DNA of 62,098 nucleotides, counting the filler, from Stramenopiles sp. TOSAG23-6 (taxonomy: Eukaryota), in assembly GCA_900128565.1 (NCBI GenBank). It is 22 parts of 22 records of this genome, joined end to end, with 100 filler letters (N's around TTAATTAATTAA, not from the genome) between each part and the next. Parts side by side here need not be neighbours in the genome. Positions count along the whole stretch, not along the records: positions 11,386 to 14,129 come from LT637847.1; 21 more parts are not named here. One strand, 5' to 3'. Below the pieces are notes generated by a model. It had not been told where the DNA came from and made no database searches. It was given only the letters and a program-made list of their open reading frames with translations. This document shows, in pieces, positions 1-46,572 of this stretch. Both the position numbers and the translations under genes were made by a program. The stretch's first letter is position 1. Every line of letters starts with the position of its first letter.

Positions 1-366
1 AACATATGCATTTTCCCAATCGCGCTTATATTGTTCTGTAGCTTGATCACTTCGTGAGGCGTGGTGCTTTGGGGCAACACTTCGTGAAGCTGAAGACTTA
101 CCTTCATTTCGTCTGTAACTTGAGTTAGAAACTCTATATGATCTACGACTCATCACAAAGAATAGAAAGAGCAACAATGCTAAACTCGGAAAATGAAATC
201 TCGCTTGTATTCAAATATTCAAATCTGAACATATGGCTTTCGCGTAACTATTATATGGTAGTTTGTTTTGCTGCATTATTTTTTTTATAAATTTGGGATT
301 GATTCAATTTTCGAATTCGAATTCAAAATTTTGACATTTGGATTCATATAGTATTAGCAAGACATA

Positions 367-1218
367 ATGATTTCCACTAAGATATTCATACTCAATTTAA
401 TTGTTTGGAACACTGTGATGATTCCCGTTCAAACGGCGGAATTGCTGGAACAGCAGAGAGGAGATCGTGACATACAAACAGAAAAAGCGAAACAGTGTCT
501 CATCGAAGAACGTTTCGACGACGCTGTTGCCATATACAAAAACGCTATTGATATTGGTCGTAATCTTAATTCTAAAAGTGATATGGTTGCCCAAGCAAAC
601 ATACATTATTCCTTGGGCCAAATATTTGAAAGAACATCACGAATGAAAGAGGCCTTAAGCTTATACAATCAAGCAATTGACAAAAATGAACACCACATCG
701 ATGCCTTTGTAAACAGAGGTTCTGTATTGTTCGAACTTGGTCGTGAAGTTGAAGCTACGGATAGCTGGGAGAAAGCGGCCTTAATGGATGAAGCTCATAA
801 TGCGAGTGGTTCAAATGAGGAAAATATATATCTAGAGTTTCTTGATGACTTGCGTGACATGAGGCAAAAAGCAATAGACGACGACGTCTCACGAGCTCAA
901 TTCCGAAGCCAACTTATTTCATTTTACCTAATTCATGATAGAACCCAACTTGAAAAACAACATTTAGACAATATAGTTGAGACATTTTATGATAGTCAAC
1001 AACAAATGTGGCAAAATTTAAGTTCAAGATATGGTGGTGTAGTTGCTCCTCTTTCGCAAAAATTTAGTCCTTCTGAAACACGAAAACAATACGAAACTAT
1101 AAATAAAACAACAGGTTTCCGCATTCCTCGAAAAGATGATATTGGACCTCCTAAAAGGCATCCATCCCTGAACAGATATACTCTCAATGAAATCATAGAA
1201 GACCCAATACTTCATTAA
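367..1218 (+). CDS. TPR-repeat protein with possible N-terminal signal peptide
   Basis: TPR-like helices (YSLGQIF..ALSLYNQAI; AFVNRGSVLFELGREVEA), hydrophobic N-terminus, TAA stop. Confidence 0.7.
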   Translation: MISTKIFILNLIVWNTVMIPVQTAELLEQQRGDRDIQTEKAKQCLIEERFDDAVAIYKNAIDIGRNLNSKSDMVAQANIHYSLGQIFERTSRMKEALSLYNQAIDKNEHHIDAFVNRGSVLFELGREVEATDSWEKAALMDEAHNASGSNEENIYLEFLDDLRDMRQKAIDDDVSRAQFRSQLISFYLIHDRTQLEKQHLDNIVETFYDSQQQMWQNLSSRYGGVVAPLSQKFSPSETRKQYETINKTTGFRIPRKDDIGPPKRHPSLNRYTLNEIIEDPILH

Positions 1219-1459: not shown

Positions 1460-2311
1460 TTAATGAAGTATTGGGTCTTCTATGATTTCATTGAGAGTAT
1501 ATCTGTTCAGGGATGGATGCCTTTTAGGAGGTCCAATATCATCTTTTCGAGGAATGCGGAAACCTGTTGTTTTATTTATAGTTTCGTATTGTTTTCGTGT
1601 TTCAGAAGGACTAAATTTTTGCGAAAGAGGAGCAACTACACCACCATATCTTGAACTTAAATTTTGCCACATTTGTTGTTGACTATCATAAAATGTCTCA
1701 ACTATATTGTCTAAATGTTGTTTTTCAAGTTGGGTTCTATCATGAATTAGGTAAAATGAAATAAGTTGGCTTCGGAATTGAGCTCGTGAGACGTCGTCGT
1801 CTATTGCTTTTTGCCTCATGTCACGCAAGTCATCAAGAAACTCTAGATATATATTTTCCTCATTTGAACCACTCGCATTATGAGCTTCATCCATTAAGGC
1901 CGCTTTCTCCCAGCTATCCGTAGCTTCAACTTCACGACCAAGTTCGAACAATACAGAACCTCTGTTTACAAAGGCATCGATGTGGTGTTCATTTTTGTCA
2001 ATTGCTTGATTGTATAAGCTTAAGGCCTCTTTCATTCGTGATGTTCTTTCAAATATTTGGCCCAAGGAATAATGTATGTTTGCTTGGGCAACCATATCAC
2101 TTTTAGAATTAAGATTACGACCAATATCAATAGCGTTTTTGTATATGGCAACAGCGTCGTCGAAACGTTCTTCGATGAGACACTGTTTCGCTTTTTCTGT
2201 TTGTATGTCACGATCTCCTCTCTGCTGTTCCAGCAATTCCGCCGTTTGAACGGGAATCATCACAGTGTTCCAAACAATTAAATTGAGTATGAATATCTTA
2301 GTGGAAATCAT
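1460..2311 (-). CDS. Mirror copy of the TPR ORF (likely artefactual)
   Basis: Identical to 367-1218, inside the fold-back. Confidence 0.5.
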   Translation of the reverse strand: MISTKIFILNLIVWNTVMIPVQTAELLEQQRGDRDIQTEKAKQCLIEERFDDAVAIYKNAIDIGRNLNSKSDMVAQANIHYSLGQIFERTSRMKEALSLYNQAIDKNEHHIDAFVNRGSVLFELGREVEATDSWEKAALMDEAHNASGSNEENIYLEFLDDLRDMRQKAIDDDVSRAQFRSQLISFYLIHDRTQLEKQHLDNIVETFYDSQQQMWQNLSSRYGGVVAPLSQKFSPSETRKQYETINKTTGFRIPRKDDIGPPKRHPSLNRYTLNEIIEDPILH

Positions 2312-2792
2312 TATGTCTTGCTAATACTATATGAATCCAATAAATATTGTCTTCTATTCTTGAACCTCTCTCTCTCTCTTGATGTTTCGCGATTNNNNNN
2401 NNNNNNNNNNAATGTCAAAATTTTGAATTCGAATTCGAAAATTGAATCAATCCCAAATTTATAAAAAAAATAATGCAGCAAAACAAACTACCATATAATA
2501 GTTACGCGAAAGCCATATGTTCAGATTTGAATATTTGAATACAAGCGAGATTTCATTTTCCGAGTTTAGCATTGTTGCTCTTTCTATTCTTTGTGATGAG
2601 TCGTAGATCATATAGAGTTTCTAACTCAAGTTACAGACGAAATGAAGGTAAGTCTTCAGCTTCACGAAGTGTTGCCCCAAAGCACCACGCCTCACGAAGT
2701 GATCAAGCTACAGAACAATATAAGCGCGATTGGGAAAATGCATATGTTNNNNNNNNNNNNNNNNNNNNNNNNNNNNNNNNNNNNNNNNNNNN

Positions 2793-2848: not shown

Positions 2849-5596
2849 GAAGACTCCGACGTTTTGGTGGATTTGGTACGATTTTCAATAATCTTCTTAA
2901 CAAATGTAGTTGCCCTTCTAGTTGACGGGATGTTTTTTTATTTTTCGCAATGTACGAGCATAGAAAACCATGGACGGCTGACATTATAGAAAGAAAACCC
3001 GTATATTCTTTACTTTCCTTGTCTCCTTTTTGTAGTTCTATCGTGTTATTCTGTTGATTCATTGCACTGAATTTTGAATTTTCATATTTCTCAATAATCT
3101 TTCGCAGAACAGGTAATTCATAGATATTAAGAATAATCAAATACACTCTTTCATCATATAAAAAGGTTTGAACAGCATTCATACTTTTCAACAGCATCCT
3201 TTGTAGCATCGAGCAGACGAATTATGTTTCCAATATTTGTGGAGGATTTTGCAAGTTTAGCGTTGTTAGCGGAGTCAAGATTGGATACTTTCGATAAGTG
3301 CTCCATAAACCCTATCTTTATCGAGTGGCGTAGCATGATTAAATCAACGCTCATTTGAACAATTACTATATCTTGATGCAAACACATATCGAATAGAAAA
3401 TCATCTACATTGGTATTATCTGTTGTCATTACTTCAAAATCAACTAAAAAACTTTCAATGGTAGATTTGAAGCGCTTAATCAAACCAAATTCGGTATACA
3501 ATTCTGGATTATTTCTACGATACTGCTCGCCAACAATGAACATGTGATACCCCGATGATTTATATAAGAAATCATTAAGATGCTTATCTTTTGAAATTCT
3601 AAAATAGCTGCGCAATAATTTTAAGCACTCTCGTTTGCATAATATATTTGGAATTGTGTCTAAACTGCGAATATTTCTCTTAGAAATAGTAGTAGATTTC
3701 CTTTCGACGGCCATTGGTCTTAGATTAATGAGAAAATCATCTCCGTGTTCTCTACCCTTCATTTGGAACTTTGATAAACCTTTTGTAGCAAGTGAAACAA
3801 TATACTTGAGTAAAATGATGCACCGACATATGCGTAGTGTATTTAATATTATTCGAGCTTGGTGAAGAGTGGATGCCACGTTCTTGTCTGATAGTAACAA
3901 TGTTTTTTTGGAAAAATATTTCAAAAAAAAATCTAAAAAACATTGTTAGGTACAAAATTTCGTACGAAAAAAAATCGAATTTTCAAAAAAATAAAACATA
4001 CATATCATACACCATGCGTCAAGAATAGATGCAAAGACGTCATTATAAGATTGTATGTCATTAAAGTATTCACTTGATCCTCTAATATGAATCTGAGCNN
4101 NNNNNNNNNNNNNNNNNNNNNNNNNNNNNNNNNNNNNNNNATGGAATTGGTCGTTTTTGATATTATTATACTTAAATGAAAACAAAACTCAATGAAAAGA
4201 AATGACAAATAATGTGAACTCCCCAAAATATCATCTTGAAATTGAATGGAATTTCTATTGTGAGAGTTAGCATTTGATGTTTGTTTAATCTCAAGTTCTT
4301 TGTCAGGAGGCACATGTACAGAACTTTCATCTAACCCATCGCATCTTTTGTTGTGGTTTTGAATGATATTACAAAATACGGGAATAATATCTGTGAAATC
4401 TTTTTTGGTGGTATAGTAGCCGAATTCTACCAAATATGTTACAGTACTTAAAACAGTAGCAGTAAAAAGATCTCCATCTTTCGAGGAACCGAATGAGTTA
4501 GATAGTTCTGCCTCAGGATCATTCAGCACATGTATATGCGNNNNNNNNNNNNNNNNNNNNNNNNNNNNNNNNNNNNNNNNNNNNNNNNNNNNNNNNNNNN
4601 NNNNNNNNNNNNNNNNNNNNNNNNNNNNNNNNNNNNNNNNNNNNNNNNNNNNNNNNNNNNNNNNNNNNNNNNNNNNNNNNNNNNNNNNNNNNNNNNNNNN
4701 NNNNNNNNNNNNNNNNNNNNNNNNNNNNNNNNNNNNNNTCTTTTCGCATTCCAACAATAAAAAGCAAATCAAAAGATACAAATGACTTTGCAATCTTTAT
4801 GCCATTGTAGTTACGGTTTTTGCATAAAGCGGTGAAGAGATCCATTTGCGCCACAAAGTACTTTGCAATATTTTGATGATACATTCTTTCTGCAAACGTA
4901 ACTTTTTCAAGTTCAAGTGTTTGAAAGGCTATTGAAAGACTTCTTTTTAATTTCCCATCTTTGGAGTTTGCAGTTATTGAAGAAGATTTCACATCTTTTA
5001 CTTTATGTTCACCATCTTGATCCCCTCTTCTAAGCAATGAAGTTAATAGTATATTTCTATCAGGTTTGTTAAATGTACTTTTCGAAGTCCATGATAATGC
5101 AACCCCAGTATCTGCTTCAGGTTGTAAAAGGGAAGCACCATGAATCGTCGTAGTGTTTGATACAATGTTTTCCATATTTAATCTCATTTTGAGTTTATCT
5201 ATATCCCCACGAATGGAATTATTTGCATTAATGTTAGGAGGTGCTAATCGGGCCTTCAAAAATAGATCTATATTTTCATCTTTTGCCAAAAGTTGACATA
5301 AAAGGTTTTGATTATCTTGCAGAATATCAGTCTTACCAGCGATAAAATTTTTATCTGAGTCACAGTGACACAAAGCAGTAACAACTTCCAAACATTTTGA
5401 GTGCATTCCTACATTTCGAATGTATATGATTATATATTGAATTATTTCATTGGCACAGTTTAGAACTAATTCTTTGTTACTCTCAAAAAGGTGTTGTAAA
5501 CATTCCGCTGCACCTATATCTAAAGATATTTGATTGATTGTAAACTTTAACCACTGTGAAAAATACATTTCACATAGACGATTAGATGAAAATGAC
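2849..5596 (-). CDS. IP3/ryanodine receptor-like Ca2+ channel, internal fragment (gaps, intron 3900-4001, frameshift near 3180)
   Basis: RIH-like motifs NQNLLCQLL, YFVAQMDLFTALCKNRNY, YLVEFGYY. Confidence 0.65.
3900..4001 (-). other. Family intron, GT..CAT
   Basis: Full consensus; removal joins DAWCMI to LLLSDKNVAS in frame. Confidence 0.85.
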
Positions 5597-8387: not shown

Positions 8388-8595
8388 ATGTATTTTGGAA
8401 AAATATTTCAAAAAAAATCTAAAAAAATTGTTAGGTACAAANNNNNNNNNNNNNNNNNNNNNNNNNNNNNNNNNNNNNNNNNNNNTTAATTAATTAANNN
8501 NNNNNNNNNNNNNNNNNNNNNNNNNNNNNNNNNNNNNNNNNTTTGTACCTAACAAATTTAAGTTTTTTTTTTTGAAATATTTTTCCAAAATACAT

Positions 8596-9386: not shown

Positions 9387-11230
9387 TTACTCGTGATTGA
9401 GTTGTTCCACAAGCTTATCATGCGCAAATCCAACGACAATTTTCTTTAACGCTAAAGATTTTGGTAAATCGCTTTGAGTGCGCTGAATAGAGCGAATATC
9501 TTCCTCAAATTTGAGCAATGTATTTTCAAGAAATTCTTTATGTTGTTTCCATTCATCATCGCCTATATCTTGATTTCGCATCATTTTTTCCAGTAGACAT
9601 TTGAGCTGTTTTTCACCATCAGACGTTTCCAAGAGTGCTTGCAGTTGTCTATGAGACTCAAAATTATTGGATACATCAAGAACTAGAAAAAATATTTCAA
9701 AAAAAATCTAAAAAAAAATGTTAGGTACAAAATTTCGTACGAAAAATAAATAAATTCGAAATTAAAAAAAATAAAACATACACTTTTTGTACTAATTATT
9801 TCTCCATCGTTTAGATTAGCAGTAGACATTGGTAAAACTCCATCAACACATGAATGCCTATTCGTTCGTTCCAATGTAGACAATGAACGAATATTTGATC
9901 TAGAATCTGCATTATTGCGAAATTTTAATTTTGCACTATACACCGCATCAACATCTGCCAATGCCTGTATTTTCATGGAGCTATCACTTTGATTAGGGTT
10001 AGGGTTAGCATCAACATCTGCCAATGCCTGTATTTTCATAGAGCTATCACTTTGATCATTAGCGTTTAATTTTTTATTTTTTCTTGTTTTTGGTGGCTCA
10101 GATACAACAGTATTACAAATATATGCCCACAATTTGATTGCAGTTGCAGGAAAATATTCTTTGAGCAAAGCAGCTGATTTTGAAAAGATAGCCTTGTCCG
10201 AGGTAGATATTGCGAGGAAATTTACCTCATTAGCAAGATTAGTCTTTTGTGTATCACTGAGCGCTTTAAACATCGATTCATCTGAACGTTCAAATACAGC
10301 TTCCATTGCATCAAGAGCTACAGCACTAACATTGCCGTCAGTAGCTTGTAACAATAACAATAAAGTATCCACGGCGCCTAAACTCAAAAGTCGAGCGAGA
10401 TGTTCACGAGAGCAACCATTACAAGCATTGAGCAAAGCAATCGCTGCTTCTTTTTTCACTTCCCAATCATCTTCATGTGCAACACGTAATAGCTCTTTTG
10501 CGGCATCTGGTTCAGTATGATCTAACAGTGCAGCCACCTGTGCTGGTGTACCCGCAGCAACATTAGACAGAGCCCAACAAACATCTTTTCGAATTCGTTT
10601 TTTGGGATGGCGAAGTAGAGGTAAAAGTGCAGTAAGAACACCCGCATCAAGAACACTCTGTGTCTGTGTGTCAGTCCCTGAAACCAAAGAACCAATGGTA
10701 ACTAAAGCAGGAGTCACAACAGCTGTTGAGGGGTGACATAACAACTTTGCAAGTGGTGCAGCAGCACCGGACTGTAGCACAGCCTCAACCCGATTATTAT
10801 CTCCATCGGAAATGTATGAAAGAGCCCAGCAAGCGTCAGCCAAAACTTCTGGATCATTCATTCGAAGCAACACTGCCAACACGGGAAGAGTCGGTAAAAC
10901 ATCTGACAATGACGTTGATGGTTTTCCACGACAAAACGAAGACAATGCCCACGTAGCATTTTGAAGCATAGATAGTCCTGAAGGCCGACGAATGTTATAC
11001 AGTAATCCTTCCACAGAGCCATCTACACGTAACACTAGATCACGCAAGAGTGGACCATCACCAGCAATATTACCAAGACACCAACAACACTGCTCTCGTA
11101 CATCATCATCTGAAGAACGAAGTAATTGTACAAGCGCGGGTAAAGCTCCGGCATCGACAACTACTTGTGTATGTTCGCTTGATGCAATGTTAGTCAAAGC
11201 CCAAGCTGCTTCAAATTGTAATGTTGGATC
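9387..11230 (-). CDS. KPNA: Importin-alpha (ARM repeats) with a long atypical C-terminal extension, 5'-partial
   Basis: LQFEAAWALTNIAS, WCLGNIAGDG, NATWALSSFCRGKP, DACWALSYISDG. Confidence 0.9.
9675..9781 (-). other. Family intron, GT..GAT (alternative in-frame reading 9683-9783 GT..AG)
   Basis: Consensus 5' end and branch motif; both solutions keep frame. Confidence 0.65.
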
Positions 11231-11385
11231 ATGTATTTTGGAAAAATATTTCAAAAAAAATCGTTAGGTACAAAATTTCGTACGANNNNNNNNNNNNNNN
11301 NNNNNNNNNNNNNNNNNNNNNNNNNNNNNTTAATTAATTAANNNNNNNNNNNNNNNNNNNNNNNNNNNNNNNNNNNNNNNNNNNN

Positions 11386-12172: not shown

Positions 12173-14129
12173 TCACTCTCGTTTCACAAGAATATCAATT
12201 CGGAGTAAGCTATCTTCAAAATTTGAAGTAGTCGTTACATCGAATATAGAATTAAAACATCTAGACATGTATGGAAGGTATTCAAATGCAAAAAGTCTAC
12301 AGAATAATTCAAATTGAACTTTTGAACTTTCTTTGTATAATTTTTGTTTCGTTTGGGGAAGTGAGCTATATTCTATCAAAGTATTTACTTGAAATTGCAA
12401 CCACTTTTGAAAACATGAAGCCATAGAATCCCTAAGAAAGTATAAAGTACATAATCGCAGTTCATTAAATGAAGATAACATGTCATTGACAAGTTCTGCT
12501 AGAACACGAAATGTTAAAAATGACGTAGGAGCAGATATATCCACTGATACGATATCATTTTTCATATCAACTTGTTTCAAAATTTTAGCCCAAGAAAGTT
12601 TCGATATTCGTCCAAAAGAATAATTTGACAACATCTTTTGAAGAAGTATTGAAGACACATTTTGTTCAAACTTTTCACTGGCAGTCATCCAATGACTATT
12701 CATAAAATCCATAAATCGATTTTCAAACAAAGGGGACAAAATTCCTTGAAAATTCGCACCCGTTTGTGTCAAAGATGTATTTTGGAAAAATATTTCAAAA
12801 AAAATATTTTGAAAATTTGTTAGGTACAAAATTTACTATAAAAAAATAAATTCAAAATTGAAAAAAATAAAACGTACATGTTGCTAAATACATACTTTGT
12901 TCTATGACATTCGAAAATGCACTACCAGATGTAATTTTAGATAGATAATATTCCAACGTTTTCAAAAAAATATTTACCTGATTCGTCACCCAACGTCTTA
13001 GTTGAAAATCAACAAGTGAATCTGAGGTCTCATTATTAGAGTTAGGGTTTGAAATATTTACAAAAATGGCTTTGTATTGTGTAATAATTTCAAACCAATG
13101 CATTCGAAACTTTTCTATAATATCGAGTAAATATTTCGCAACAGCCTCTGAAGCTTTTGTACGACTCAGGTTGTCGACGTCAGGTACCAATACAGTTTGA
13201 ATAACTCCACGTAAATATTCCTCACGACAATTCAAAAATTCAAAGGATAATGATGACTTGACCATATTTTCTCTTTTTGAAGTAAATGTGTTTCGCGAAT
13301 TTTGCACATTGTTTTGTACTTGTCTATTTTTGTTTTCCTTATCTGTAGATATATTGCTATTTCCAATAATAGTAGAATCGTCAGTAGAATTATTCATTGT
13401 CGAACGGTAAAAATACAAATTAGTGAATTCTGAAAAATTGGATTGTGAAGAACTTTCGTTTTTTTCGTGTTTTTCGTTTTCCTCACGTAAAGGTTTCTTT
13501 TCTTGAGTTAAATTATATAAGGAAGTATTCTTATCGCATTGAGATAATTGATCTAAACGCTTTAAATATCCCACAATTTTGAAACACATGGGTAAATCAA
13601 TTTTGTTACACAAATGCCGTAGTAGTTGTTTTCTCATTAACTCTTTCGATGTATGCACTTCACCTACANNNNNNNNNNNNNNNNNNNNNNNNNNNNNNNN
13701 NNNNNNNNNNNNNNNNNNNNNNNNNNNNNNNNNNNNNATTGAATTGTCTTCATAGTTAGATTTCGATAACACAGGTGAAAGCATTTTATGACGTTTCTCA
13801 AGAATGTTGGCAAAAGAGACCAAATCTATTGCTTCTTTATATAAATTATTCCGAACACAAGTGTCCATAAGTTGAGGGACTTCAAGTAACTCAAGTAATT
13901 GAGTATGTTGCTGTAATGTCTTTTGGTTCTCCTCGTGGCTGCGAACTATTGAAACACCTAACTTTAGAAACGTATCTGCCTCGCTATTAATTTGAGGAAG
14001 TTCCGCTAAAATGTTGCCGAGCTTCTGAATACCAGACTGAGAAGCAACCTTTACGTCCTGCAAACAAGTATGATTTTCTATATAAAGTTTGTAATTTTTC
14101 AACAAGTCTAACAAATATACTTGAACCAA
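12173..14129 (-). CDS. COG8: Conserved oligomeric Golgi complex subunit 8 (Dor1), intron 12775-12877; true end may be the TAG near 12058 via a frameshift error
   Basis: LLELLEVPQLMDTCVRN; spliced junction gives QSMYLATSLTQTGANFQGIL, matching the COG8 QCMYFGLSFSRVGADFRG-type motif. Confidence 0.88.
12775..12877 (-). other. Family intron, GT..CAT
   Basis: 103-nt removal restores the COG8 motif without an indel; no AG after the branch motif; ACAT direct repeat. Confidence 0.93.
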
Positions 14130-14288
14130 NNNNNNNNNNNNNNNNNNNNNNNNNNNNNNNNNNNNNNNNNNNNTTAATTAATTAANNNNNNNNNNNNNNN
14201 NNNNNNNNNNNNNNNNNNNNNNNNNNNNNGTTAGGTACAAAATTTCGTACGAAAAATAAATTCGAAATTGAAAAAAAATAAAACGTAC

Positions 14289-19893: not shown

Positions 19894-22624
19894 CATGTAT
19901 TTTGGAAAAATATTTCAAAATTTTTTTTTTTTAGTTTCAAAAAAAAAAAAAAGTTTGTTAGGTACAAAATTTCGTATGAAAAATAAATTTAAAAAAAAAA
20001 AATAAAACATACATTAATTCGGATAGAAGATTTCGCTGTGTTAGTGCTGAAGGATAAAATATGTCGAACCCGGCACAAAGCGTAGCAATCGCTTCTCGCT
20101 GCATGCATTGTGTAGAATGAATACTTGATGTATCCCATTGACATGTATTTTGTAAAAATATTTCAATTTTTTTTTTTGGTTTGTTTGGTTTTTTGGTTAG
20201 TAAAAAAAAATTCTTTTCGTTTTCTATGAAAATTTACTATGAAAAAAAAAAAAAAATTGAAATAAAAAAAAAATAAAACATACATGCATTGTCAACAAAC
20301 AAATTTGAAGGAGTGTCTATATATTTTCCTTCTATGCTCATTGGAGAAGCAACAAGACGTCGTAATAGCTTATGTAGCGCGGGCAAAATATATTCTGAAT
20401 CTTTATTTTTTTTGATATCTTCAGAAAATGTTGATTTTTTTGCCGCATGCTTTAAATTGACACGCAAAAGTCTCATGCAAGACATGTATTTTGGAAAAAT
20501 ATTTCAAAAAAAAAAAAAAAAAATCTTTTAGTTTAGGAACAAAATTTCGTATGAAAAAAAAAAAAAATTTATAAAAAAAAAAAAAATTTTTAGGTAAAAA
20601 ATTTTTAAAAAAAAAAAAAAAAAATATTTACTAAAAAAAAAAAAAAAAACATACATTCTTCCAAAGGAAAACATCCTACATCGTTCTTAGATGAGACGTT
20701 TTTAGGGTTTTTAGAGTTTTTAGAGTTTTTAGGGGTTTTAGAGTTTCCTATATGTGTCGGTATGTTTTTCTTAGGTTCATTTGTCATTAAATTTTCAGAT
20801 GGAACATTTGATAAATTTGATGAATTTTCATAACATCCAAACTTAGATTCTTTCCAAAGGGAAACGACATGACGTTGAAGTGACCCTAACAATACTTCAT
20901 ACGGAAACGGAAACGATATACTACTTTTGTGCTCATCTCTACTCAATTTCTTCTTTTTAAAAGATTGTTTTTCATCAGATAATTTTTCAGAGTCATATTT
21001 GAAAGAATTGATTCTACGCAAATCTCGAGGCAAATCTAGCAATTTATTTTGAGCAGATAAAACTCTTTCTAGTAATTCTCTGAATAATGCTTTCAATGCA
21101 GTTGGATCAAAATCTGTTGTTTTATCCTTCATATCGCCCATAGTATGATTAAGCAAAGAACAAACTACGTAGTTTTGTGATAATTTATGTAACAAGGCAT
21201 GGAGTAGAGCAGAGTTTGGAGAAGCAGCTCGCATGTATTTTGGAAAAATATTTCAAAATTTTTTTTTTTTAGTTTCAAAAAAAAAAAAAAGTTTGTTAGG
21301 TACAAAATTTCGTATGAAAAATAAATTTAAAAAAAAAAAATAAAACATACATTAATTCGGATAGAAGATTTCGCTGTGTTAGTGCTGAAGGATAAAATAT
21401 GTCGAACCCGGCACAAAGCGTAGCAATCGCTTCTCGCTGCATGCATTGTGTAGAATGAATACTTGATGTATCCCATTGACATGTATTTTGTAAAAATATT
21501 TCAATTTTTTTTTTTGGTTTGTTTGGTTTTTTGGTTAGTAAAAAAAAATTCTTTTCGTTTTCTATGAAAATTTACTATGAAAAAAAAAAAAAAATTGAAA
21601 TAAAAAAAAAATAAAACATACATGCATTGTCAACAAACAAATTTGAAGGAGTGTCTATATATTTTCCTTCTATGCTCATTGGAGAAGCAACAAGACGTCG
21701 TAATAGCTTATGTAGCGCGGGCAAAATATATTCTGAATCTTTATTTTTTTTGATATCTTCAGAAAATGTTGATTTTTTTGCCGCATGCTTTAAATTGACA
21801 CGCAAAAGTCTCATGCAAGACATGTATTTTGGAAAAATATTTCAAAAAAAAAAAAAAAAAATCTTTTAGTTTAGGAACAAAATTTCGTATGAAAAAAAAA
21901 AAAAATTTATAAAAAAAAAAAAAATTTTTAGGTAAAAAATTTTTAAAAAAAAAAAAAAAAAATATTTACTAAAAAAAAAAAAAAAAACATACATTCTTCC
22001 AAAGGAAAACATCCTACATCGTTCTTAGATGAGACGTTTTTAGGGTTTTTAGAGTTTTTAGAGTTTTTAGGGGTTTTAGAGTTTCCTATATGTGTCGGTA
22101 TGTTTTTCTTAGGTTCATTTGTCATTAAATTTTCAGATGGAACATTTGATAAATTTGATGAATTTTCATAACATCCAAACTTAGATTCTTTCCAAAGGGA
22201 AACGACATGACGTTGAAGTGACCCTAACAATACTTCATACGGAAACGGAAACGATATACTACTTTTGTGCTCATCTCTACTCAATTTCTTCTTTTTAAAA
22301 GATTGTTTTTCATCAGATAATTTTTCAGAGTCATATTTGAAAGAATTGATTCTACGCAAATCTCGAGGCAAATCTAGCAATTTATTTTGAGCAGATAAAA
22401 CTCTTTCTAGTAATTCTCTGAATAATGCTTTCAATGCAGTTGGATCAAAATCTGTTGTTTTATCCTTCATATCGCCCATAGTATGATTAAGCAAAGAACA
22501 AACTACGTAGTTTTGTGATAATTTATGTAACAAGGCATGGAGTAGAGCAGAGTTTGGAGAAGCAGCTCGCATGTATTTTGGAAAAATATTTCAAAATTTT
22601 TTTTTTTTAGTTTCAAAAAAAAAA
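19894..22624. repeat. Exact 1338-bp tandem duplication, probable assembly loop through family introns
   Basis: 19894-21231 equals 21232-22569; junction intron 20484-20654 has two branch-like motifs and breaks frame. Confidence 0.85.
20655..21821 (-). CDS. Fragment of a large protein, possibly HERC/HECT-type E3 ligase; exons 21821-21622, 21480-21351, 21232-20655
   Basis: GT..CAT introns 21481-21621 and 21233-21350 join in frame; QREAIATLCAGFDIFYPS..RNLLSEL resembles giant E3 ligases. Confidence 0.4.
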
Positions 22625-23915: not shown

Positions 23916-24470
23916 ATTTCAAAACAGCAATTGCGACATGATTATTTATTCAAGTTCCANCATCTACTCTTGATACTAAAAATATAGGCTAAATATAGGA
24001 AGGAACACATGAGAGCTTGGCTTGCAGAACGATTTGATGTCCTGACAGAAATCGAGTATTGACCGACTTTTCGACCTTTTCGGCTTTCCCACGTTGACTT
24101 GACACAGAAAAACATAATTAAGGTACTTTTCTGTATCCTTTTACTATAAATTGCATGTATTTATTGCTCAAGATGAATAAAATCTTGGCTAAAATAACAA
24201 AGTCGATAATTCAACATTTTCATAAAGTTTTCTTCTATAGATAACCCTAACCCTTATTATACTAGTATATACCATGGCTAAATTTTTCACAGCTGACAGT
24301 GTGACACGTCATTTTTCTGAACACGTGTGTTGTTGGTACCGTGCTTGCTGTTAGATAAGCCCAAGTTGTTTGTATTGTAAACACGCGTGTCTTGAAGCGA
24401 GTTCATTGATTATAAGCAAGTGTTTATCAAAATTNGTTTACAACTGGAAATTACTTACAACTGAAAGCAC

Positions 24471-25389
24471 ATGCTAAATAAATGGAAAGACCCTTATGAT
24501 TTTGTTTGTAAAACTGCTTCCTCAACTTTTTCAAGCGATACTTTTTCACCCTCATTATTCAGTGTTTTCTTAGGGACGTTTGTAATCAATGCGGAATTGT
24601 TCGTTTACGAAAGACGACACTGGTTCAAACACTTGAAAGTCGTTTACGTACTATTTCGGTTATGTATTTTCCCTGCATTATTTGGAATCCTCTCATTTTT
24701 ACTATGGTTGCCCTTTGAAGGGCTTAGCTTTCGCGACACAATTAAAAGGNCAGACGGGAAATCCAAAATCTGTGTGTGTGACACAATTAAATCNACAGTG
24801 GAGAACAAACTAAAACTCAAAGAATGTGTCCGTTTTGCAAGCTTCAATATATCGTCATGCATAGGTACGGATGGTAAAGAAAATGTCATTCGAACCGCCA
24901 ACGCCATCAAGAAACTAAATTGTGAAGTCATAGCGTTACAAGGCGTGGAAATGAACAAAAAAATTGATCAAGTGGCTTTATTGAGCCAACTTGCTGGTTA
25001 TCAGTATACTGCTTTTCTTTCGACTCTGAATCCATCAAAGTCTGGTGGATACGGTGATGCCATATTATCAAAACTCAAGATTGTGGAGCAACGCGATATG
25101 TACATTTTCATCATGATTGTTTTTGTGTTTAAAAAAAAAAAATTCATTGAAAATTTCATACTTAATCAAATTTTTTTTTCCACAATATTTTTTCACAATA
25201 TATTCGTTTTGAGACGTGGAAACGGAGATCTCAAAGAGGCTGTGTCTTTGTGAAAATTAAGACAAAATCAAAATTCATGTGGTTAGGTTCATCTCATTTA
25301 CAAAACGATATTACTGGGTACGAAAATATTGCACAATTGAAAGTTATTTCGAAGACACTCCAAAATTTACCACTTTGTGTGGTTGGCAT
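24471..25389 (+). CDS. Endonuclease/exonuclease/phosphatase-family protein with N-terminal TM (intron 25100-25203; next intron from 25390)
   Basis: FASFNI, EVIALQGV, DQVALLS, YGDAILSK, then spliced RGCVFVKI..SHL. Confidence 0.75.
25100..25203 (+). other. Family intron, GT..TAT
   Basis: GTACAT..CACAATATAT; links the two EEP ORFs in frame. Confidence 0.8.
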
Positions 25390-31253: not shown

Positions 31254-32733
31254 ATGCACTTAGTTGTTGTATCGGAACGCCCACAAGACTTCTGATTACC
31301 TTCGGACGCAAGACATCCAACTTATCACCATGTATCATGGACAAATATTTGAAGTGTTTTTTGTTAGGTACAGAATTTGGTACAAAAACAATTAACTTGA
31401 AATTAAAATGATGAAAACATATATGACCACATTTTCCATACTCCCCATGTGTTTTGGAAGAATATTTCAAAAAAAAAATCGTTAGGTACAAAATTTCGTA
31501 CGAAAAATAAATACCCCAGGAGTATACATGACCAGATTCAGTGACTGCAAGGCTATGATATCTTCCTGCTAAGATATGGCGTATCCCACGAACATCTTCA
31601 ATTAGTTTTGGTAGCATTTCGTCAGATCTTCTGCCATGTCCTAATTGTCCGTAGTTACCATAGCCACAGGAATAGATTCTCCTAGATTCAGTGAGAAAAA
31701 GAGAATGGCTACCCCCTGCACTGATTTCCATGACTCTTTTCCTTTCTAAACATTCGACCAATTTAGGCTTCATTTGATGCGTTTGATCACCATGTCCGCT
31801 TTTCCCATATGAACCTGAACCCCAAGACCAAACCTTGCCATCGCGTGTTAAGGCGAGTGAGTGATGATCTCCTGCCGTGATGGACATAACACCTTTTTGT
31901 TCTAATGTTTTAATAACCATTGGTTTCTGTTGGTGGCTTTCATTTCCGTGTCCAAGTCTTCCTGAATCCCCACAACCAAACGAATATACAGAACCATTAG
32001 AAGCTAGAGCTAAACTATGAACGGCACCAGCAGAAACACTTACAATATTTACAAGTCCTTTCAAAGATTTAATTTCTTTTCCTTCATTCTCTCCAAGCTC
32101 CGAACCGTGACCTAAACGACCAAATCGACCAACACCAAAGGAACAGATTGACATTGAGTCCATCACAATGAGTACAAAATGGTCTACACCACTACCGCAC
32201 GCAAGTCTATTTTGTACAGAGGTCATCATTAAACGTGAAGTTAACTCCATATTACTCAGCCATTCACTCCAACTTCTTCGGGGTGTTTCTTGACGTCGCG
32301 CAGAAAGTTCCATATTTGCACGACCCTTTATTTTCCTGATATTTGAAACCTTTTTAATGGCATAAGCAGCCCTAAGCATACATGTTCGCTGTGTCAAACC
32401 AACTATCCGAGGAATCGCAACTGGGTGAAAGAAAGGTGATACAACGTCAACTGAAGAAAGATCCTTAGCACTTAAAAAAGACAAAGTCACAACAATTACG
32501 GAGTCTGGAATATCTAACAATGATAATTGTCGACGTTTTACCGATAATTTTGCAAATACAGAAGTATTACATACTTGGTCGAGACTACGTGAAAAATCTC
32601 GCCACACCTTGAAAAGACCAGAGAATGAGGGCAAGTTTTGTGGACTACTGTTCTCTTTGGGAAGACAGGAATTTAGTTGCACGAGGGCTTTACTTGCTGT
32701 ATCAATAGCTTCCAGTAATTTATTCCCATCCAT
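31254..32733 (-). CDS. F-box plus RCC1-repeat protein, 3'-partial
   Basis: F-box-like LLDIPDSVIVVTLSFL; RCC1 repeats SAGAVHSLAL..VYSFGCGDSGRLGHG. Confidence 0.85.
31330..31422 (-). other. Family intron, AT..CAT variant (93 nt, stop-free)
   Basis: Removal gives GKCGH|GD exactly as in the neighbouring RCC1 repeats; CAT direct repeat. Confidence 0.85.
31447..31512 (-). other. 5'-truncated family element inside an RCC1 repeat (66 nt, in frame)
   Basis: Palindrome, branch motif and 3' end present; GTATGT 5' segment missing. Confidence 0.7.
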
Positions 32734-39681: not shown

Positions 39682-42402
39682 TGCTTACGTCTAGCTAATG
39701 CCGTTGCCATTGGCGAAGATGTACTTTTATTATCCAATACTGGAATTGATGGAGCGGGTGCCTTTGGTGTATTGAAACTACGCTTACGTCTAGCTAATGC
39801 CGTTGCCATTGGCGAAGATGTACTTTTATTATTCATCAACACTGCAGTTACCGATGGGGGTGCTGGTGGAGGTGCATCTGGTGTCTTAAAGCTACGCTTG
39901 CGTATAGCTAATGCCGTTGCCATTGGCGAGGATGTACTTTTATTATCCGCCAATACTGAAATTGATGGAATTGATGGAGCTGGTGCATCTGGTGTGTTGA
40001 AACTACGCTTACGTCTAGCTAATGACGTTGCCATTGGGGATGATATATGATGCGGCCCTGGATCTCTCGGAGGACTGTCAAATATATTTAGTTGGTGTGG
40101 TGGTGGTGATGGTGCTTCAGCTTTATCTGTACGAAAATTCGATTTGCGCTTTATTAGTGCAGTTGCTAATGGTGATGATGCTACAAGTCTGTGACCATCT
40201 AGCATCCGACGAAACGTTTTTTCGGATTTTGGTTTCAGCGAATTTAGTGCATCATCGAATGGTGATGAAATATGTCTATTTTCTAAGCTAGAACTATCTG
40301 TAGAGTTATCACTATTTGCACTGTCAAGCCTAAACAATTTTGTTCTATTACTCCGAGGTGATAATGGATTAACCATGAGGGGTGGTGATTGATGTTTAGG
40401 ATAGAAAGTTTTAGATGGAACTGAAGCACTCTTTGTTCCACTATGTCCGATATCATTCTGTGTCCCGGGACGTTTGGGGAAATTATTTTCATTGTCTTTA
40501 TTTTCAACGTTTGCACGACCTGATTCTACTGTTCTCTGAAATTGGTTAAAGTCGAGACTTTTATTTGGATTGAATTTGTTCGCAATATCCAGCACTTTAC
40601 GATCATTCTGAGTTATGCCAAGTTCAATTTCTAATTCAGGTGAATCACAGAGCTTATTAATAGGCATTGCAGGTACTGCTTCCAATCTACCTCCTTCAAT
40701 ATCAAATATATTATTGTTTTTCACGGTTTGTTTCATTATTTCCAGGTTATGCCTAATATTTCGAGAAATCTGAGATTGAGATTCCATATTAAGTAGTATT
40801 TGATTTTCAGCAATAATATTTTCCATTTCATTTATTTGAGACAATTCATCTTTCTCTTCTGGTAATTGTTCCTTCCTACTGTTTTCCATTTTATATATTT
40901 GAGATGATTCATTTTCTTCATTTGAAAGGTTTTCTTTTGTTTCATATCGTATGTGGTTTACGGCAATAATATCTTCGATTTCACCTACTGGAAGTAATTT
41001 ATCTTCCTCTTCTGGCATTTTTTCTTTTACATCATATATTATTTGTCTTGTATCATTATTGTTCTTCATTTTATCTTCTTGGGACAATTGATTTTTCTCT
41101 TTCAAAAATTGTGCTTTAATTTTATGAAGTCTTTGTTTTTCAGTATTGACATCTTGCATTTCATCTACTGGAGGCAATTTATCATCATCTTTTGACAATT
41201 TCTCTTTTATATCATGTAGTAGTTCTTCTTCATCATCACTGTATTCTATTTTATCTACTTGGGACAATTGATTTTTCTCTTTCAACAACTGTGCTTTAAT
41301 GGAATGAAGTCTTTGTTTTTCAGTATTAATGTCTTGCATTTTTGCTATCAGAGATAATTCTTCTTCATCTATTGACAATTGTTCTTTAACTTTTGCCAAT
41401 TTTGCATTCGCTTCTGCTCTTTTGACTTGTTGATACTGCCTTTTTTCAAGGTTATTAACTGTAAATTCAAAATCAGTTTCGTTTGTTTCATTTATAAATC
41501 TTTCATATTTTCGCGTGTCTTCTTTATCAATTTGTGTATTTTTCCTTGTAAAGTATTTGGCAATCTGTTTTTCGATTTCTTGGATTTCTTGAATTTGTTT
41601 GTCCATAATGATAAGTTTTTTTTTATTTTCTTTTAGCTTTTCATGCGCAGCAGTTGAATCATAAAAATCTATTTTATCAACTTTCTTTAATATTTTAGAT
41701 GTATTAGTTACAGTAGTTACATTTTGACGGACCAAATCAAGAGCGTTTTGTAGTTCCAAACTGTCACTTTCGTATGCATCTTTTAATTGTTTGATTAGTT
41801 TGTCTTCTTGATTTTTCCGAGGCAACATTTTTTCCGACATAGAACGCACACCTTTTATATAGGACTCTAAATGTTCGGACGTATCTTCAGTAGCTTGGGC
41901 ACTATGTAAAACTTTAGCTTCTAAGAGATTCATGGCATCTAAAAGCTTCTTATTTTGTATTTCAACTAATTCTGCCGTTCGCTTTTTCCCTTCTGACAAA
42001 TACCATGCTGCAAGGGGAGCATCAACAGAAAGTTTCTTTAAGCTAATCATTTCATCTCGAATTGAAAGTTTTCTAGCTAAAATGCGATCATTATTATTAG
42101 CTTGAAGATATTTTGAATGATATAAGTTATCCACAGATCTTTTGTTGAAAGGTTTCAGATAATCTCGAACAAAATTGAGATTCACTTTGGATTGTACTAC
42201 AAAATTGTTATCTATATCATCATAAATTCGCTTCCATCTTTGTACTCCTTCTTTTTCTACATTCATATCAGCTTTAACAGATTCCATCAAGTGTAATAGA
42301 CGAAGTTCTCTTGGAGCTGTCCGACCTAAACGTTCTAACGGTTTACGATACACGTAACTTCTGTGATGATTTGTCGCTGGTGACAATCGAGTTGGTGTAG
42401 GA
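39682..42402 (-). CDS. Large coiled-coil/low-complexity protein with ~40-aa SSPMATALARRKRSF repeats, partial
   Basis: >900-codon open frame with internal repeats. Confidence 0.75.
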
Positions 42403-42501
42403 NNNNNNNNNNNNNNNNNNNNNNNNNNNNNNNNNNNNNNNNNNNNTTAATTAATTAANNNNNNNNNNNNNNNNNNNNNNNNNNNNNNNNNNNNNNNNNN
42501 N

Positions 42502-43805
42502 NTCCGACGTCTCGCTCATAAATCCCGAGATGGATTTCATGAGTCTGTCCACATTTTGCTCGACGCCGGTGCGCAGCAGTGTGGTGATGGCAATGGTGGC
42601 GACATTGCGATTCGGGTCCGATATGAGATGTTCCAAATCAACGTTGCACGGCGCGACGGCGGTGGGGGACCTCAGAACGACACGGCTCAGCGTACGCACA
42701 GCTGCGTATCTCTGCACTGGCGAGTGGGAGCCCAGAAAATCCTGAAGAGTCCCAACCGCGGCAGCGATTTCTCGTGGCTGNNNNNNNNNNNNNNGGCGGC
42801 CTCGTACGCGACTGTGAAGTTTGAGCTTGAGAGTTGGTTGTGAAGGAAGCTGGACAAAAGTCGATCTGGTGTCTCCTGTCGACGAATGACCCGATCAACG
42901 CATCGGATGAGAAGACACTGAGCAAGAGGACCCTTCGGGGGCGACCGTGCAAGCTGTGCTGCGAGTTTTTTGATGGCCATTTGGTCGTATTGTTTGATTT
43001 TGAAGAGTAGCAGCAAGGCATGGAGCTGCACGGTCGGAGAAGGGTTGGTCAAGGCGACCTGTACCTCTTTGGTCCAGCGACGGATGGAGTCGGCGCCTTG
43101 GTCAAACAGGTAATTTCCAGCCAAAAGGGCGGCCGATACGACACTTGGGTCACGGTCGACTATAGCCTGCTTCATCAGGCGGTCAAACCCAGCCACCATG
43201 GAAGGGTCGAGGATCTTGGCCAAAACCCGAAGGGAATTGGCGCGGTAGCTGTCGACTTTCCCTGTCATGTCCTTAGCGAGGCTGTTGACCACCATCATGG
43301 CCTCTTCCGGCTTGGCGGGAAGGTCCTTCAGGGCCAGGTACACCATGCGACGAAGCTGCACGTCGCGCGAGTTGAAGAGCTTCGTGACGCTGAAAAAGAG
43401 ATTCGACACTTCGCGGTCGGTGAAAGATTCTCCCTGCATCATCAGGTGCTCGATCTTCGTGAGAACGTCGTAGCACTGACGCGAGTCGACGATTTTGTCG
43501 TTGAAGCACTTGGCCTCATGCACCACCGCATTCTTGGTCAAGTTCTCGAACGGCGAGGGCTCGAACTCTGGTGGGAGCGGCGCAAAGGTTGGTCAGAAAT
43601 AGGTCCTCGAGCGGTGCAAGAGCGTGACAGTATGCCCAGCACTTCGCGGTGCCGCCGCGACGCGCAACTCACCCTCCCCTNNNNNNNNNNNNNNNNNNNN
43701 NNNNNNNNNNNNNNNNNNNNNNNNNNNNNNNNNNNNNNNNNNNNNNNNNAACTCACCCTCCCCATCCTCTCCTTTGTATTTCCCCGTGTCCATCCGCCCA
43801 TCCAT
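42502..43805 (-). CDS. COPG: Coatomer gamma subunit, N-terminal part (canonical intron 43568-43672), GC-rich scaffold
   Basis: [66 protein letters not shown] intron. Confidence 0.92.
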
Positions 43806-44041
43806 GATGTCACCGCCGCAGCGCGGGATCGCCAGTGCCCGGGCCGCTTACAGAGCTCTTTTGCCTTCTCCAGAGCGAAGAAATTTATTTTTTCGGTCGT
43901 AGCGCTAAAAATTGGCCAATTGGCCAAGGGCCAAGGGAGAGGTCAAAAGCCCTTTCAGCTGTGGTGTGGCGCACGCGTGCTGACGTGTTCCCGGGCCCTG
44001 GTCGGTCACACGCGGGAGCGGGGCCGGATTTTGGCGTCAAT

Positions 44042-44714
44042 ATGATGGAGCAGGTGGAGCAGTTGCTCAAAGAGATCCCTCCCATTACTCGAACGTACAT
44101 GATCGCGGCGTTTGCGACGACGACGGCGTGCTCATTGGAGCTCGTGTCTCCGTACCGCCTGTATTACAGCAGCACACTCATCTTTCAGAAGCTGGAGCTG
44201 TGGCGGCTAGCTACAAACTTTTGTTTCTTTGGCCAGAACTTCCCGTTGGACTTTCTGTTCCACATGTTCTTTCTCGTCCGCTATAGCCGCGCGCTCGAGG
44301 AGAACTCCTCTGTTTAGCCTTCAGTTCCTTGGGTCGTCTCTCACGTTCATGATGGTATATCTATGGGGCCGCCGAAACCCAGCAGCGCAGATGAATTTCC
44401 TCGGCATCTGGCCTTTTACGGGACCTTACCTGCCATGGTTACTCTTCTCATTTTCGCTGGTCCTAGGAGGTGTCTTCAAGGTCGACTTCCTTGGGATTAT
44501 TGTGGGTCATTTGTATTATTTTCTTGAAGACGTTTACCCACGTCTGATTCACTCGCGGTACCGGCTCTTGGAAACGCCTGCGCTAATAGAGAGGATGTTT
44601 GCATCGGACGATAGGGGTGATTTTTTGCTCGAGGATGAAGATGAGGATGAGAATGCGGCGGATGGCGAAGATGGACTAGATGCAGATGCTCCAGGGGGCT
44701 TTCGGGTTGAGTAG
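44042..44714 (+). CDS. DERL: Derlin (Der1-like), with internal deletion/frameshift near 44310
   Basis: IPPITRTY, ELWRL.TNF.FFG, RYSRALEE, LGSSLTFMMVY.WGRRNP, GHLYYFLEDVYP. Confidence 0.88.
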
Positions 44715-45322
44715 CACTTCACTTTAATCACTTCAGTTTAATCACTTCAGTTTAATCACTTCAGTTAATTCTAGAAAAAAAATGCGATGTTGTACATTGA
44801 CAATATTGTATTGACAAATTGTTGCGGAATCTTAGCTTGACACAGCTTATCGCAGCTACGAGCGCTTCGCAGCACAAGATGCCGATGTGTTGTGTTACTT
44901 GTGCTGTTCCTTGTGATGATGATCGTAGTGTTGCTCGTGGTGATGTTGTATCTTGTACTGTCATTGTCGTTTCTGCTACACTGCACATGATAAATGCACG
45001 TATGACATGCACCACGCGCATGACATTTACTATATGTATCACACACGACACAGACTCGTCGTAAGTTGAAACCGAATGTTGAAACCGAATGTAATGTAGT
45101 ACAGTATATTCAAAGGACATTAGCGTACTGCTTCCAAAATTCGACTGATTTTTCATACCGTTTTCTGTCAATGGGTTTCCCAGAACCACCTTCCCCCAGA
45201 GGCAGTGCGTTGCGCATTATTGNNNNNNNNNNNNNNNNNNNNNNNNNNNNNNNNNNNNNNNNNNNNTTAATTAATTAANNNNNNNNNNNNNNNNNNNNNN
45301 NNNNNNNNNNNNNNNNNNNNNN

Positions 45323-46572
45323 CTATCAACATCGACTACACNANTGAATTCGATTTGATCAACTTCACCTATAGCCCTTTCAAAATTATTGATATTATCG
45401 ATATTAAGTAATGGTTCAAGATGTTTTATCAATGGACTTTCCCATGAGTTTATCTGATATGGCTCAGCTGTTGCTTTTTCTGAAAATAATTTCAGGATTA
45501 ATTTTTTGGAAACTTCGCGAAACGCACTTGTATTGGAGTGTTGTAACTCATTACATATGCGAAACAATTGTTTCGAGTCCAATTGCCATACAAGAAAGTT
45601 AAATAAGTCGCCAGTTTCAAAAGAATGCGCAAGCTCAATAATTATTGCCTGTTCCGAAAAAGGAAACTCTGAGAACTCACGTTTTCTTCTATCGAATAGC
45701 TGTTGTGTGGTAAGTTCAGGTTGAGGTTCAGGTTGAAGTTGAAGTTGAAGTTCAGGTTCAGGTTGAGGTTCAGGTTGAGGTTGAAGTTCAGGTTGAAGTT
45801 CAGTATCACACTTCTTATTGTTTGGGTATAATTCAAACTGCAATGATAGTGCATAAGCAAGTCTTGTTTTTTCGATAATACGCTTTGCATGTTCTTTTTT
45901 TTCGTTTTCATCCATTGAGACTTCGACATGTTGTTGCTGTAAGATTGCAGTAAGTAGCTTCAGAAAATTCTCAACTTTTGTATCATCATCTGGCGAGTTC
46001 AATAGTTCTCTCTTGTAGCAGTCATTTCCGTCGGTGGAAAACATTTTACGAATTAAAAGGAGATCAATTTTGTAGAAATCACCATCATATTTAGTACACA
46101 TATCAAATAGCTTTTCAACACTAGGATCAATATCTACGATAACTTCAACAATGTNGGCAAGAACCTCATGTAATGCAAGATAGTTAGCAGCTTCGAGAAG
46201 TTGTGGCAGCGTGTTTTCTTCGTTCCTAATTATGTCCTTAATTGTCTCGTGAGCGTCATCTTTGTTTTCATCGTTTAGTTTCTTCTGAATGTCAAATAGG
46301 GTTTCAAGGTGCTCCGCGGATACCACTGGTAAAGGAATAGGCTTATCATCTTCAGTGTCATCGAGCATTTCGGATATCGTTTGACTCTTTAGAGCTACTG
46401 TTTCAAGGACTTTGATTTCTTCGTTGTCACTTGATTGAACTGTAACACATGACTCGCCATTTGCAGTTCTTAAATTGTGTTTACCCTTTACTCCGTCGCG
46501 TGCAGTGTCTGCACCCATTCCTCCTATTCCTTGTGAAAGAAGTAGGATACTCAGTACAATAATATTAATCAT
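45323..46572 (-). CDS. Skp1/BTB-like domain protein with N-terminal signal peptide, 3'-partial
   Basis: VTVQSSDNEEI.V..VA.KSQTI.EML..PIPLP.V; LLEAANYL; hydrophobic leader. Confidence 0.75.

Follow-up and report, generated by a model that had tools for sequence, protein, structure and literature searches.

The mass gains of introns known so far involve either canonical ends, as in Micromonas and Aureococcus, or very diverse ends, as in Fritillaria, Amoebophrya and the euglenids. Micromonas IE1 and the introners of Aureococcus consist of thousands of short, similar introns with short inverted ends, to which the element and the duplication of its target each give one splice site (PMC11282704). 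In the published model of M. pusilla IE1, the introner brings the 5′ site while the target-site duplication (TSD) gives the 3′ site (PMC11282704), and this anatomy, which an initial annotation of the present sequence had invoked, is matched by the family described here, with AT in the place of the duplicated bases. Here we describe a family of short, similar introns in a stretch of 62,098 nucleotides, filler included (hereafter the window), in which parts of 22 records of Stramenopiles sp. TOSAG23-6 (GenBank assembly GCA_900128565.1) are joined end to end. The family is exemplified by a 103-nt stretch within a COG8/Dor1 gene, which begins with GT and ends with AT. Copies of this family occur in unrelated genes of the window, and they were probably spread by a mobile element.

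The anatomy of the family sets it apart from its described counterparts, of which the introners of Micromonas and the 3′ AT introns of Fritillaria come closest. Introners of Micromonas and Aureococcus end in AG and have a 3-nt TSD, whereas the window family ends in AT and has a 2-nt direct repeat; unlike them, it also has the 5′ site, the putative branch core and the 3′ terminus all inside the element. In Fritillaria borealis and F. pellucida, AT outnumbers every other dinucleotide at the 3′ ends of introns (34% and 44%, respectively), and the introns display YAY both before the 5′ site and as their last three bases while keeping a U-rich tract (PMC13326754). The use of 3′ AT and AC in Fritillaria has been linked to divergent U2AF paralogues (PMC13326754), and an origin of its introns from miniature inverted-repeat transposable elements (MITEs) has been proposed (PMC11282704). 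The YAY rule is also followed in the window. Among the 26 introns with both ends readable (duplicates counted once, introns with a diverged interior and family ends included), 23 end in YAT, and the preceding exon ends in YAT in 15. The main Fritillaria classes start with AG and their host is a larvacean tunicate, whereas 25 of the 26 window introns begin with GT, in a GTAYGT context, and no animal is among the 120 relatives listed for an importin-alpha-like protein of the window.

Amoebophrya (Syndiniales) is alike in that its non-canonical introns come in many copies; direct repeats span their junctions, inverted repeats lie at their ends, and they are described with no internal transposase (PMC7789003). 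Its direct repeats of 3-5 nt, hairpin-forming inverted repeats of 8-20 nt and many end types differ from the uniform GT...AT ends, the 2-nt repeat and the absence of a stable fold in the window family (PMC7789003). A diplonemid origin was not supported, the splice sites of hemistasiids being described as C/G-rich and without conserved ends (PMC12621601). We found no description of a GT...AT introner family in the open-access literature, searched for the motif and for introners in stramenopiles of the MAST (marine stramenopile) type; the supplementary tables of PMC12130899 and of its predecessor could list the organism.

The COG8 intron and its boundaries

The COG8/Dor1 gene lies on the minus strand. 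Its upstream coding part (12878-14177) is an open frame, broken by an N mask at 13669-13737, with COG8 homologues and a match to the Pfam family Dor1 (E 9.2e-39). The coding frame picks up again at 12774, in a downstream exon that extends to the stop codon (12173-12774) and is delimited by its open frame and by the COG8 alignment. When the two are joined without the stretch from 12877 to 12775, the product aligns ungapped with 14 of 14 COG8 homologues across the RVGADFRG block. The split codon of the junction sits inside this block, which is the best conserved of the region, and moving the junction by 3 bases either way would produce an indel within it. To judge from the encoded protein, it is very likely that an intron is removed at these boundaries.

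There is no AG at or just past the intron's 3′ end, the first one being about 40 nt inside exon 2; thus, this is not a GT...AG intron. Because ACAT stands at both junctions, five registers yield an identical mRNA, namely GT..AT and, by shifts of 1-4 nt upstream, TG..CA, AT..AC, CA..TA and AC..AT. The ACAT repeat that the initial annotation ascribed to this copy is present, since exon 1 ends in ...ACAT and the intron in ...AAAATACAT. The unit also lies where that annotation had placed it, but the range given (12771-12881) takes in four flanking bases on each side of the stretch predicted to be excised, 12877 to 12775.

The layout of the intron proper (12775-12877) comprises, on the minus strand, GTACGTTTT directly after the ...ACAT of the exon, a T-rich tract, TTGTACCTAACA, another T-rich tract and TTCCAAAATACAT. 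The 5′ splice-site hexamer GTACGT (12872-12877) conforms to the family consensus GTAYGTTTT. It follows the terminal AT of exon 1 (12878-12879), the first copy of the 2-nt direct repeat, the match here reaching ACAT (12878-12881). The core motif TTGTACCTAACA (12818-12829) is invariant in the family alignment and holds a CTAAC sequence that resembles a branch site, about 45 nt before the 3′ end. The conserved 3′ terminal motif TTCCAAAATACAT (12775-12787), with 16 exact matches in the window against 0.02 expected, closes with the second AT (12775-12776), which is both the repeat's second copy and the 3′ end that differs from AG. The match of this copy to the family profile spans model positions 1-102, and the end of the element is in frame. 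A 5′ start of GTATGTTTT had been attributed to it; this copy starts with GTACGTTTT instead, although GTATGTTTT is enriched in the window (31 occurrences against 1.45 expected).

An abundant family of similar introns

Copies of the family are about 90-170 nt long. Their consensus is GTAYGTTTT...CGTACGAAATTTTGTACCTAAC...TTTYCAMAATACAT, preceded by AT at the end of the exon. A profile made from 14 complete copies was searched with nhmmer against the 59.2 kb of non-N sequence of the window and returned 48 matches (0.8 per kb), of which 46 are independent, two pairs being in a 100%-identical duplication. The core TTGTACCTAACA, with up to two mismatches, was found 46 times (6.6 expected), and a sister variant of the 3′ end, TTCACAATACAT, had seven exact matches (0.02 expected). 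Mean pairwise identity was 0.65 over whole copies, with gaps scored as mismatches. The host genes include those of COG8, an importin-alpha-like protein, an RCC1-like protein and a galactosyltransferase; in other words, many similar introns stand at unrelated positions in one genome, which is what characterizes introners.

Similarity between copies extends to stretches without known splicing signals, such as small palindromes around TTCGAA and CGTACG. The 3′ ends form discrete variants with linked changes (TTCCAAAATACAT and TTCACAATACAT), and variants of the 5′ half are also recognisable. The similarity over the whole length and the discrete end variants suggest a mobile, introner-like origin, and it is the mobility of the family that we hold firmly. 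For the COG8 stretch, the composite statement that it is a spliceosomal-type intron and one copy of a very abundant introner-like family, with the origin proposed below included, is one towards which we lean slightly.

Environmental sequences also contained the element. In the 2024 seawater DNA run X3, summed depth was 55073 on the element against 4.2-4.8 in the adjoining bins; this sum is no copy number, and it means that words of the element exceed those of the single-copy flanks more than 10^4-fold. The joints found at the element in this run were only of the 'goes back' type, within the repeat. The stretch was present in small DNA runs of 2015, all from a single organism, and partly also in seawater metagenomes and metatranscriptomes. 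Meanwhile, the 22-nt family core had no match in public viral contigs and none in metagenome contigs. A degenerate 19-mer matched seven loci in public contigs, six by chance and one as a true copy, at 2460-2600 of a 3.2-kb metagenome contig with a GC content of 0.35 (L006), which is the only family copy found outside the window. Its ends are as in the window (AT before GTATGT at the 5′ end, ...CACAATACAT at the 3′ end); CCCTAA-like repeats lie nearby, and nothing else is common to this contig and the window. Within the window, five CCCTAA telomere-type repeats (54150-54181) are found inside the family intron 54129-54256. Rfam gave no match in the window at gathering thresholds.

Junction dinucleotides and reading frames

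The preceding exon has AT as its last two bases in 23 of the 26 introns (GT, CT and CC in the others), and the intron's own 3′ terminus is AT in 23 as well (otherwise GT, AG and AC). Both junctions have AT in 21, while the frequency of the AT dinucleotide in the window is 0.096. These counts bear out the earlier observation that most upstream exons, and the introns themselves, end in AT. The last three bases of the intron are CAT in 19 and TAT in four, and exon 2 starts with G in 18.

The extension of the repeat to CAT, ACAT or ATAT had also been reported. It can be seen in individual copies: ACAT in the COG8 intron, and ATAT in a 113-nt intron on the plus strand (55491-55603, GTATGTTTT...CAATATAT), part of the nine-intron gene model described below. 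Across the family, however, the third base agrees in 8 of the 21 AT/AT introns, which is the chance expectation (0.33); the direct repeat is therefore 2 nt long and the longer extensions are coincidental. Of the proposed insertion at AT with a duplication of 2-4 bp, the AT...AT direct repeat holds, with a length of only 2 bp. Since both ends are nearly always AT, a duplication is indistinguishable from two fixed signals in most introns. A tabulation of junction repeats, suggested for the whole genome and made here for the window, singles out five introns with a non-AT end. One of them, at 49397, has matching GT/GT ends, as expected from duplication at a GT target; two separate changes from AT would be an unlikely route to them.

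Reading frames provided a separate line of evidence. In an automatic test, the aligned end of the element was in frame in 14 of 17 family copies. A gene at 53.8-56.4 kb could be modelled with ten exons and nine introns; one frame of this model is free of stops, whereas the other two have 49 and 27. The introns of this model end, in order, in AG, AT, AG, AT, AT, AC, AT, AT and AT (six AT, two AG and one AC), and A-T, A-G and A-C would all serve as the 3′ end at one aligned position. A further junction is fixed at the aligned ...ATACAT end in the RCC1-like gene, by the blade motif of four earlier blades. The proposal that splicing restores the exon agrees with these predicted gene structures, as it does with the ungapped COG8 alignment.

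Proposed origin of the family

We propose that each copy would bring its own signals: the 5′ site GTAYGTTTT, the core CGTACGAAATTTTGTACCTAAC with CTAAC, a T-rich tract, and TTTYCAMAATAC followed by AT. The source would be a small non-autonomous DNA element, with the core GTAY...ATAC, that inserts at AT dinucleotides and duplicates this 2-bp target. The 5′ cut would fall directly after the first AT and the 3′ cut directly after the second, whereby the element and one copy of AT would leave the transcript and the coding sequence would be exactly restored. The spliceosome would have to accept A-T as the last two bases of the intron, and also A-G, A-C and G-T at the same position. A DNA element with a 2-bp AT duplication specifically is held more loosely than the mobility of the family; we give it a chance close to even, if not slightly under.

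Several observations weigh against this model. The other four of the five non-AT introns have mismatched ends (CT/AT, CC/AT, AT/AG and AT/AC), which indicates that the 3′ AT is today independent of the end of the exon; such mismatches can be explained by later mutation of old copies, and equally by a fixed 3′ signal. GTAYGTTT and ...CAMAATACAT are retained even where the interior of the intron has decayed, so the ends must be under selection now, presumably for splicing, whatever their origin. This conservation points to splice-signal selection and not, by itself, to transposon termini. At 6 nt with AT counted in, or about 10 nt if one bulge is allowed, the terminal inverted repeat is short, and it lies over the 5′ splice site; no stable RNA fold was found, either for the COG8 copy compared with shuffled sequences (z -0.41) or for the consensus of 13 copies (-0.42 kcal/mol). 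As the initial annotation had remarked, there is no transposase in the window: the scan of 30 open reading frame (ORF) translations detected no transposase, integrase or reverse-transcriptase family. Presence/absence polymorphism, for which reads had been proposed as a source, did not appear, as run X3 contained no empty allele at 4-5x depth; the COG8 intron is also present in this 2024 metagenome (X3 contig, 12425-12799).

Gene structures and RNA add to these points. Three of the 17 frame tests failed, at 9781, 54129 and 54315. In the first, the 3′ end is truncated (...TTCTAG) and the cut could not be fixed; in the other two, very short preceding exons misled the script, and they were resolved only through the ten-exon gene model. 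Two neighbouring family introns of the RCC1-like gene (31331-31511, minus strand) are without an in-frame GT at the 5′ end. One of them starts with ATATGT instead of GTATGT (ATATGTTTT), its junction being fixed by the blade motif, while the other is a 5′-truncated copy that starts within ...GGTATTTATTTTTCGTACG and has no in-frame GT...AT cut; these two may be real introns with an AT start or assembly errors. RNA runs left the COG8 exons beside the intron uncovered and contained no joint across it, a result that neither confirms nor denies splicing, and no near-identical transcript-derived protein was found, the best identities being 49% (RCC1-like), 40% (COG8) and 68% (importin-alpha-like).

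The ends of the family deserve a closer look. ATGTAT, made of two exon bases and GTAT, and the terminal ATACAT pair in 138 of 156 cells over the 26 introns, and permuting the 3′ ends among introns gives 138.2. As permuted partners score alike, the complementarity resides in the consensus, without covariation between the two ends. Moreover, position 4 is C in nine introns, and in eight of them the base opposite is still an A or T, which does not pair with it. The imperfect inverted repeat of the initial annotation is thus retained as complementarity of the consensus ends, short and lying over the 5′ splice signal, whereas its suggestion that these ends pair in RNA is possible on paper and is supported neither by covariation nor by the fold values given above.

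Euglenid nonconventional and intermediate introns are alike in their non-AG ends, TSD-like junction repeats and proposed MITE origin (PMC6221363, PMC11282704). They differ in the absence of a U1-type 5′ site and in a stable structure that joins their ends, as opposed to the GTAYGT and the weak folding of the window introns, and a nonconventional intron of this kind was rejected as the identity of the family on account of its GTAYGT 5′ end and the lack of a supported structure. Among described transposons, ISL2EU (PHIS superfamily) makes a 2-bp target duplication, typically AT (PMC4122938, PMC4482050), to which the 2-nt AT repeat of the window family would correspond. Its inverted repeats usually start with GG, its target is A/AT/T and it is described as known only from animals, in contrast to the GTAY start and N/AT/G context of the window element (PMC4482050). 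The family was not assigned to ISL2EU/PHIS, as it has neither the GG start nor the A/AT/T target: the base before the AT is A in 6 of 23 exon ends, and the one after the intron is T in 4 of 26.

Alternative explanations

The AT...AT repeat does not demand a duplication. A mobile element of the form TGTAY...ATACA could insert between A and T, in the manner of Spy or Helitron transposons, and the repeat would then be half host and half element. Such a register makes the inverted repeat cleaner (TGTAT/ATACA) and is just as able to restore the exon, and Spy transposons do insert between A and T without a TSD (PMC4122938). Yet the GT/GT intron at 49397 would require two independent changes in place of the single event needed under duplication, and the Spy termini (GGANNNNG) and AAATTT target are a misfit for the flanking bases counted above. 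Helitrons end in TC...CTRR, which does not fit the termini of the family either. We consider this origin unlikely, if worth keeping in mind. Spread through RNA is also improbable in our view. Excised introns would reverse-splice at sites resembling AT/G, be copied into DNA and recombine, the 3′ AT belonging to the intron and the exon AT reflecting a preference of the spliceosome. The copies are indeed sense-oriented as far as can be judged: 41 of 48 matches lie on the strand with the more open flanking frame, and five of the seven exceptions abut N masks. The preferred context, with AT at the end of the exon and G as the first base downstream of the intron (18 of 26), the likeness of the ends to selected splice signals and the absence of transposases from the 30 ORFs would fit this route too. 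A sense bias can, however, also be left by selection after insertion of DNA, the GT/GT copy goes unexplained, and discrete internal palindromes with a short terminal inverted repeat are seen more typically in DNA elements; nor is there a reverse transcriptase in the window, although the window is small. It is rather improbable that the family never moved and consists of old introns, alike because the splice signals of this organism, at both ends and at the branch site, are exceptionally long. In favour of this reading, conservation is strongest at the ends and in the branch core, which recur in introns with unrelated interiors, and the intron at 15085 combines the family core with ordinary GT...CAG ends. 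Against it, similarity runs through the stretches without known signals and the sub-variants have linked changes, the density is 0.8 introns per kb in a compact genome, and a relative of the importin-alpha-like protein has no intron at the sole site compared. In this relative (P0272, 68% identical, from a 28.6-kb contig taken as genomic on account of its length), the ORF reads about 55 residues through the site of the family intron 11231-11287. Ancestral and shared positions had been named as what would contradict a transposon origin; this read-through, at one site and in a distant relative, goes against them.

Two further readings concern where, or on which molecule, the cuts are made. If the same family were cut two bases upstream, its members would be AT...AC introns, processed by an A/C-tolerant U2-type or a minor-type spliceosome. 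A first A and a last C are a known compatible pair of intron ends, and the mRNA would be identical in 16 of the 26 introns (those of AT/AT type ending in ACAT). In the other 10 this register fails or changes the ends, and GTAYGT suits a U1/U6-type site in the GT...AT register. Introns of U12 type have RTATCCTT at the 5′ end and a TCCTTAAC branch site about 10-26 nt from the 3′ end. That 5′ consensus is absent from the family, and its CTAAC, about 35-65 nt from the 3′ end, is too far away for the U12 type, which leaves the AT...AC register very improbable. Identification as a U12-type (minor) intron was rejected outright from the 5′ end GTAYGTTTT (ATGTAYGT when shifted) and this position of CTAAC. 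Least credible of all is removal at the level of DNA, between the AT repeats, as with the internal eliminated sequences of ciliates, despite the precise excision, short direct repeats and inverted ends that this would share with the family. The copies have GTAYGT and CTAAC signals, the genes are open under the standard code, and the element is joined to other sequence in RNA libraries (X10 record 4), where carry-over of DNA is possible.

Atypical copies and other features of the window

Some copies depart from the family pattern. The 146-nt intron at 15085 (minus strand), which has the family core (CGTACGAAATTTCGTACCTAAA), has an unrelated 3′ half besides its GT...CAG ends, and its exon ends in TT. 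The copy at 9686-9781 (minus strand) has its 3′ end truncated to ...TTTTTTCTAG, and the exon before it ends in GT. Here GTATGT...CTAG and ...CTAGT are out of frame, whereas GTGTATGT...CTAG, two bases upstream, or ...TTGAT, downstream, would be in frame. A canonical-looking acceptor, TTTTTTTAG, occurs about 20 nt past CTAAC in the copies at 3904-4001, 8388-8441, 9686-9781, 50955-51049 and 51597-51685. In the first of these, the internal AG of TTTTTTTAG is also in frame and would add 11 residues, which makes it a possible alternative acceptor.

The DNA of the window is eukaryotic and AT-rich, its GC content being mostly 0.25-0.37. As a lead to the host, the named proteins most similar to that of the importin-alpha-like ORF come from stramenopiles (a bicosoecid, diatoms, pelagophytes, brown algae and oomycetes), a haptophyte and plants. 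A larvacean host, to which the 3′ AT introns of Fritillaria, a weak TNFR match and animal matches of COG8 had pointed, was rejected on this result, with no animal among the 120 relatives listed. The region 42000-46000 has a GC content of 0.41-0.47, against about 0.30 elsewhere, and no family introns; it includes a Der1-like gene spread over two overlapping frames, with about 25 profile positions missing, for which an assembly chimera, a pseudogene or foreign DNA are possible explanations. The region 24465-25253 has a weak, below-threshold match to the endonuclease/exonuclease/phosphatase family (E 7.4e-5), the sole hint of an enzyme of mobile-element type.

Duplications and masks also shape the window. 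The segments 19894-20193 and 21232-21531 form a 100%-identical direct duplication (family D16) with a spacing of 1338 nt, and the two family introns in it were counted once. An inverted duplication at 358-1218 (plus strand) and 1460-2320 (minus strand) has identical 286-aa ORFs of the TPR (tetratricopeptide repeat) type, a pattern typical of chimeras from single-cell amplification. Finally, every ~2.83 kb (e.g. 14130-14229) the sequence TTAATTAATTAA stands between two runs of 44 N, across exons and introns alike, hiding one end of about 20 family copies.

Implications for intron gain and splicing

This family touches two questions, by what routes introns are gained and how much departure from GT...AG a spliceosome can sustain. 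Compared with the mass gains described to date, the window family is uniform: its 5′ site and branch motif are yeast-like, but 23 of 26 introns end in A-T, and the aligned position also admits A-G, A-C and G-T. Tentatively, and at somewhat less than even confidence, we suggest that almost the whole intron complement of an uncultured marine protist, probably a stramenopile, may derive from one GT...AT introner family in which the second AT of a 2-bp duplication serves as the 3′ splice site. In that case, splicing at a 3′ AT would have been invented independently of Fritillaria, with fully canonical 5′ and branch sites.

These findings have consequences for annotation as well. Gene callers that require AG would mis-annotate most genes of such genomes, because introns at 0.8 per kb would be read through or would break the gene models. 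If the junctions are true at the RNA level, the family would isolate a single variable, the 3′ terminal dinucleotide, and the target duplication as a source of the 3′ site would be directly testable. The family would then be a clean natural system for understanding how the spliceosome picks a 3′ end without AG.

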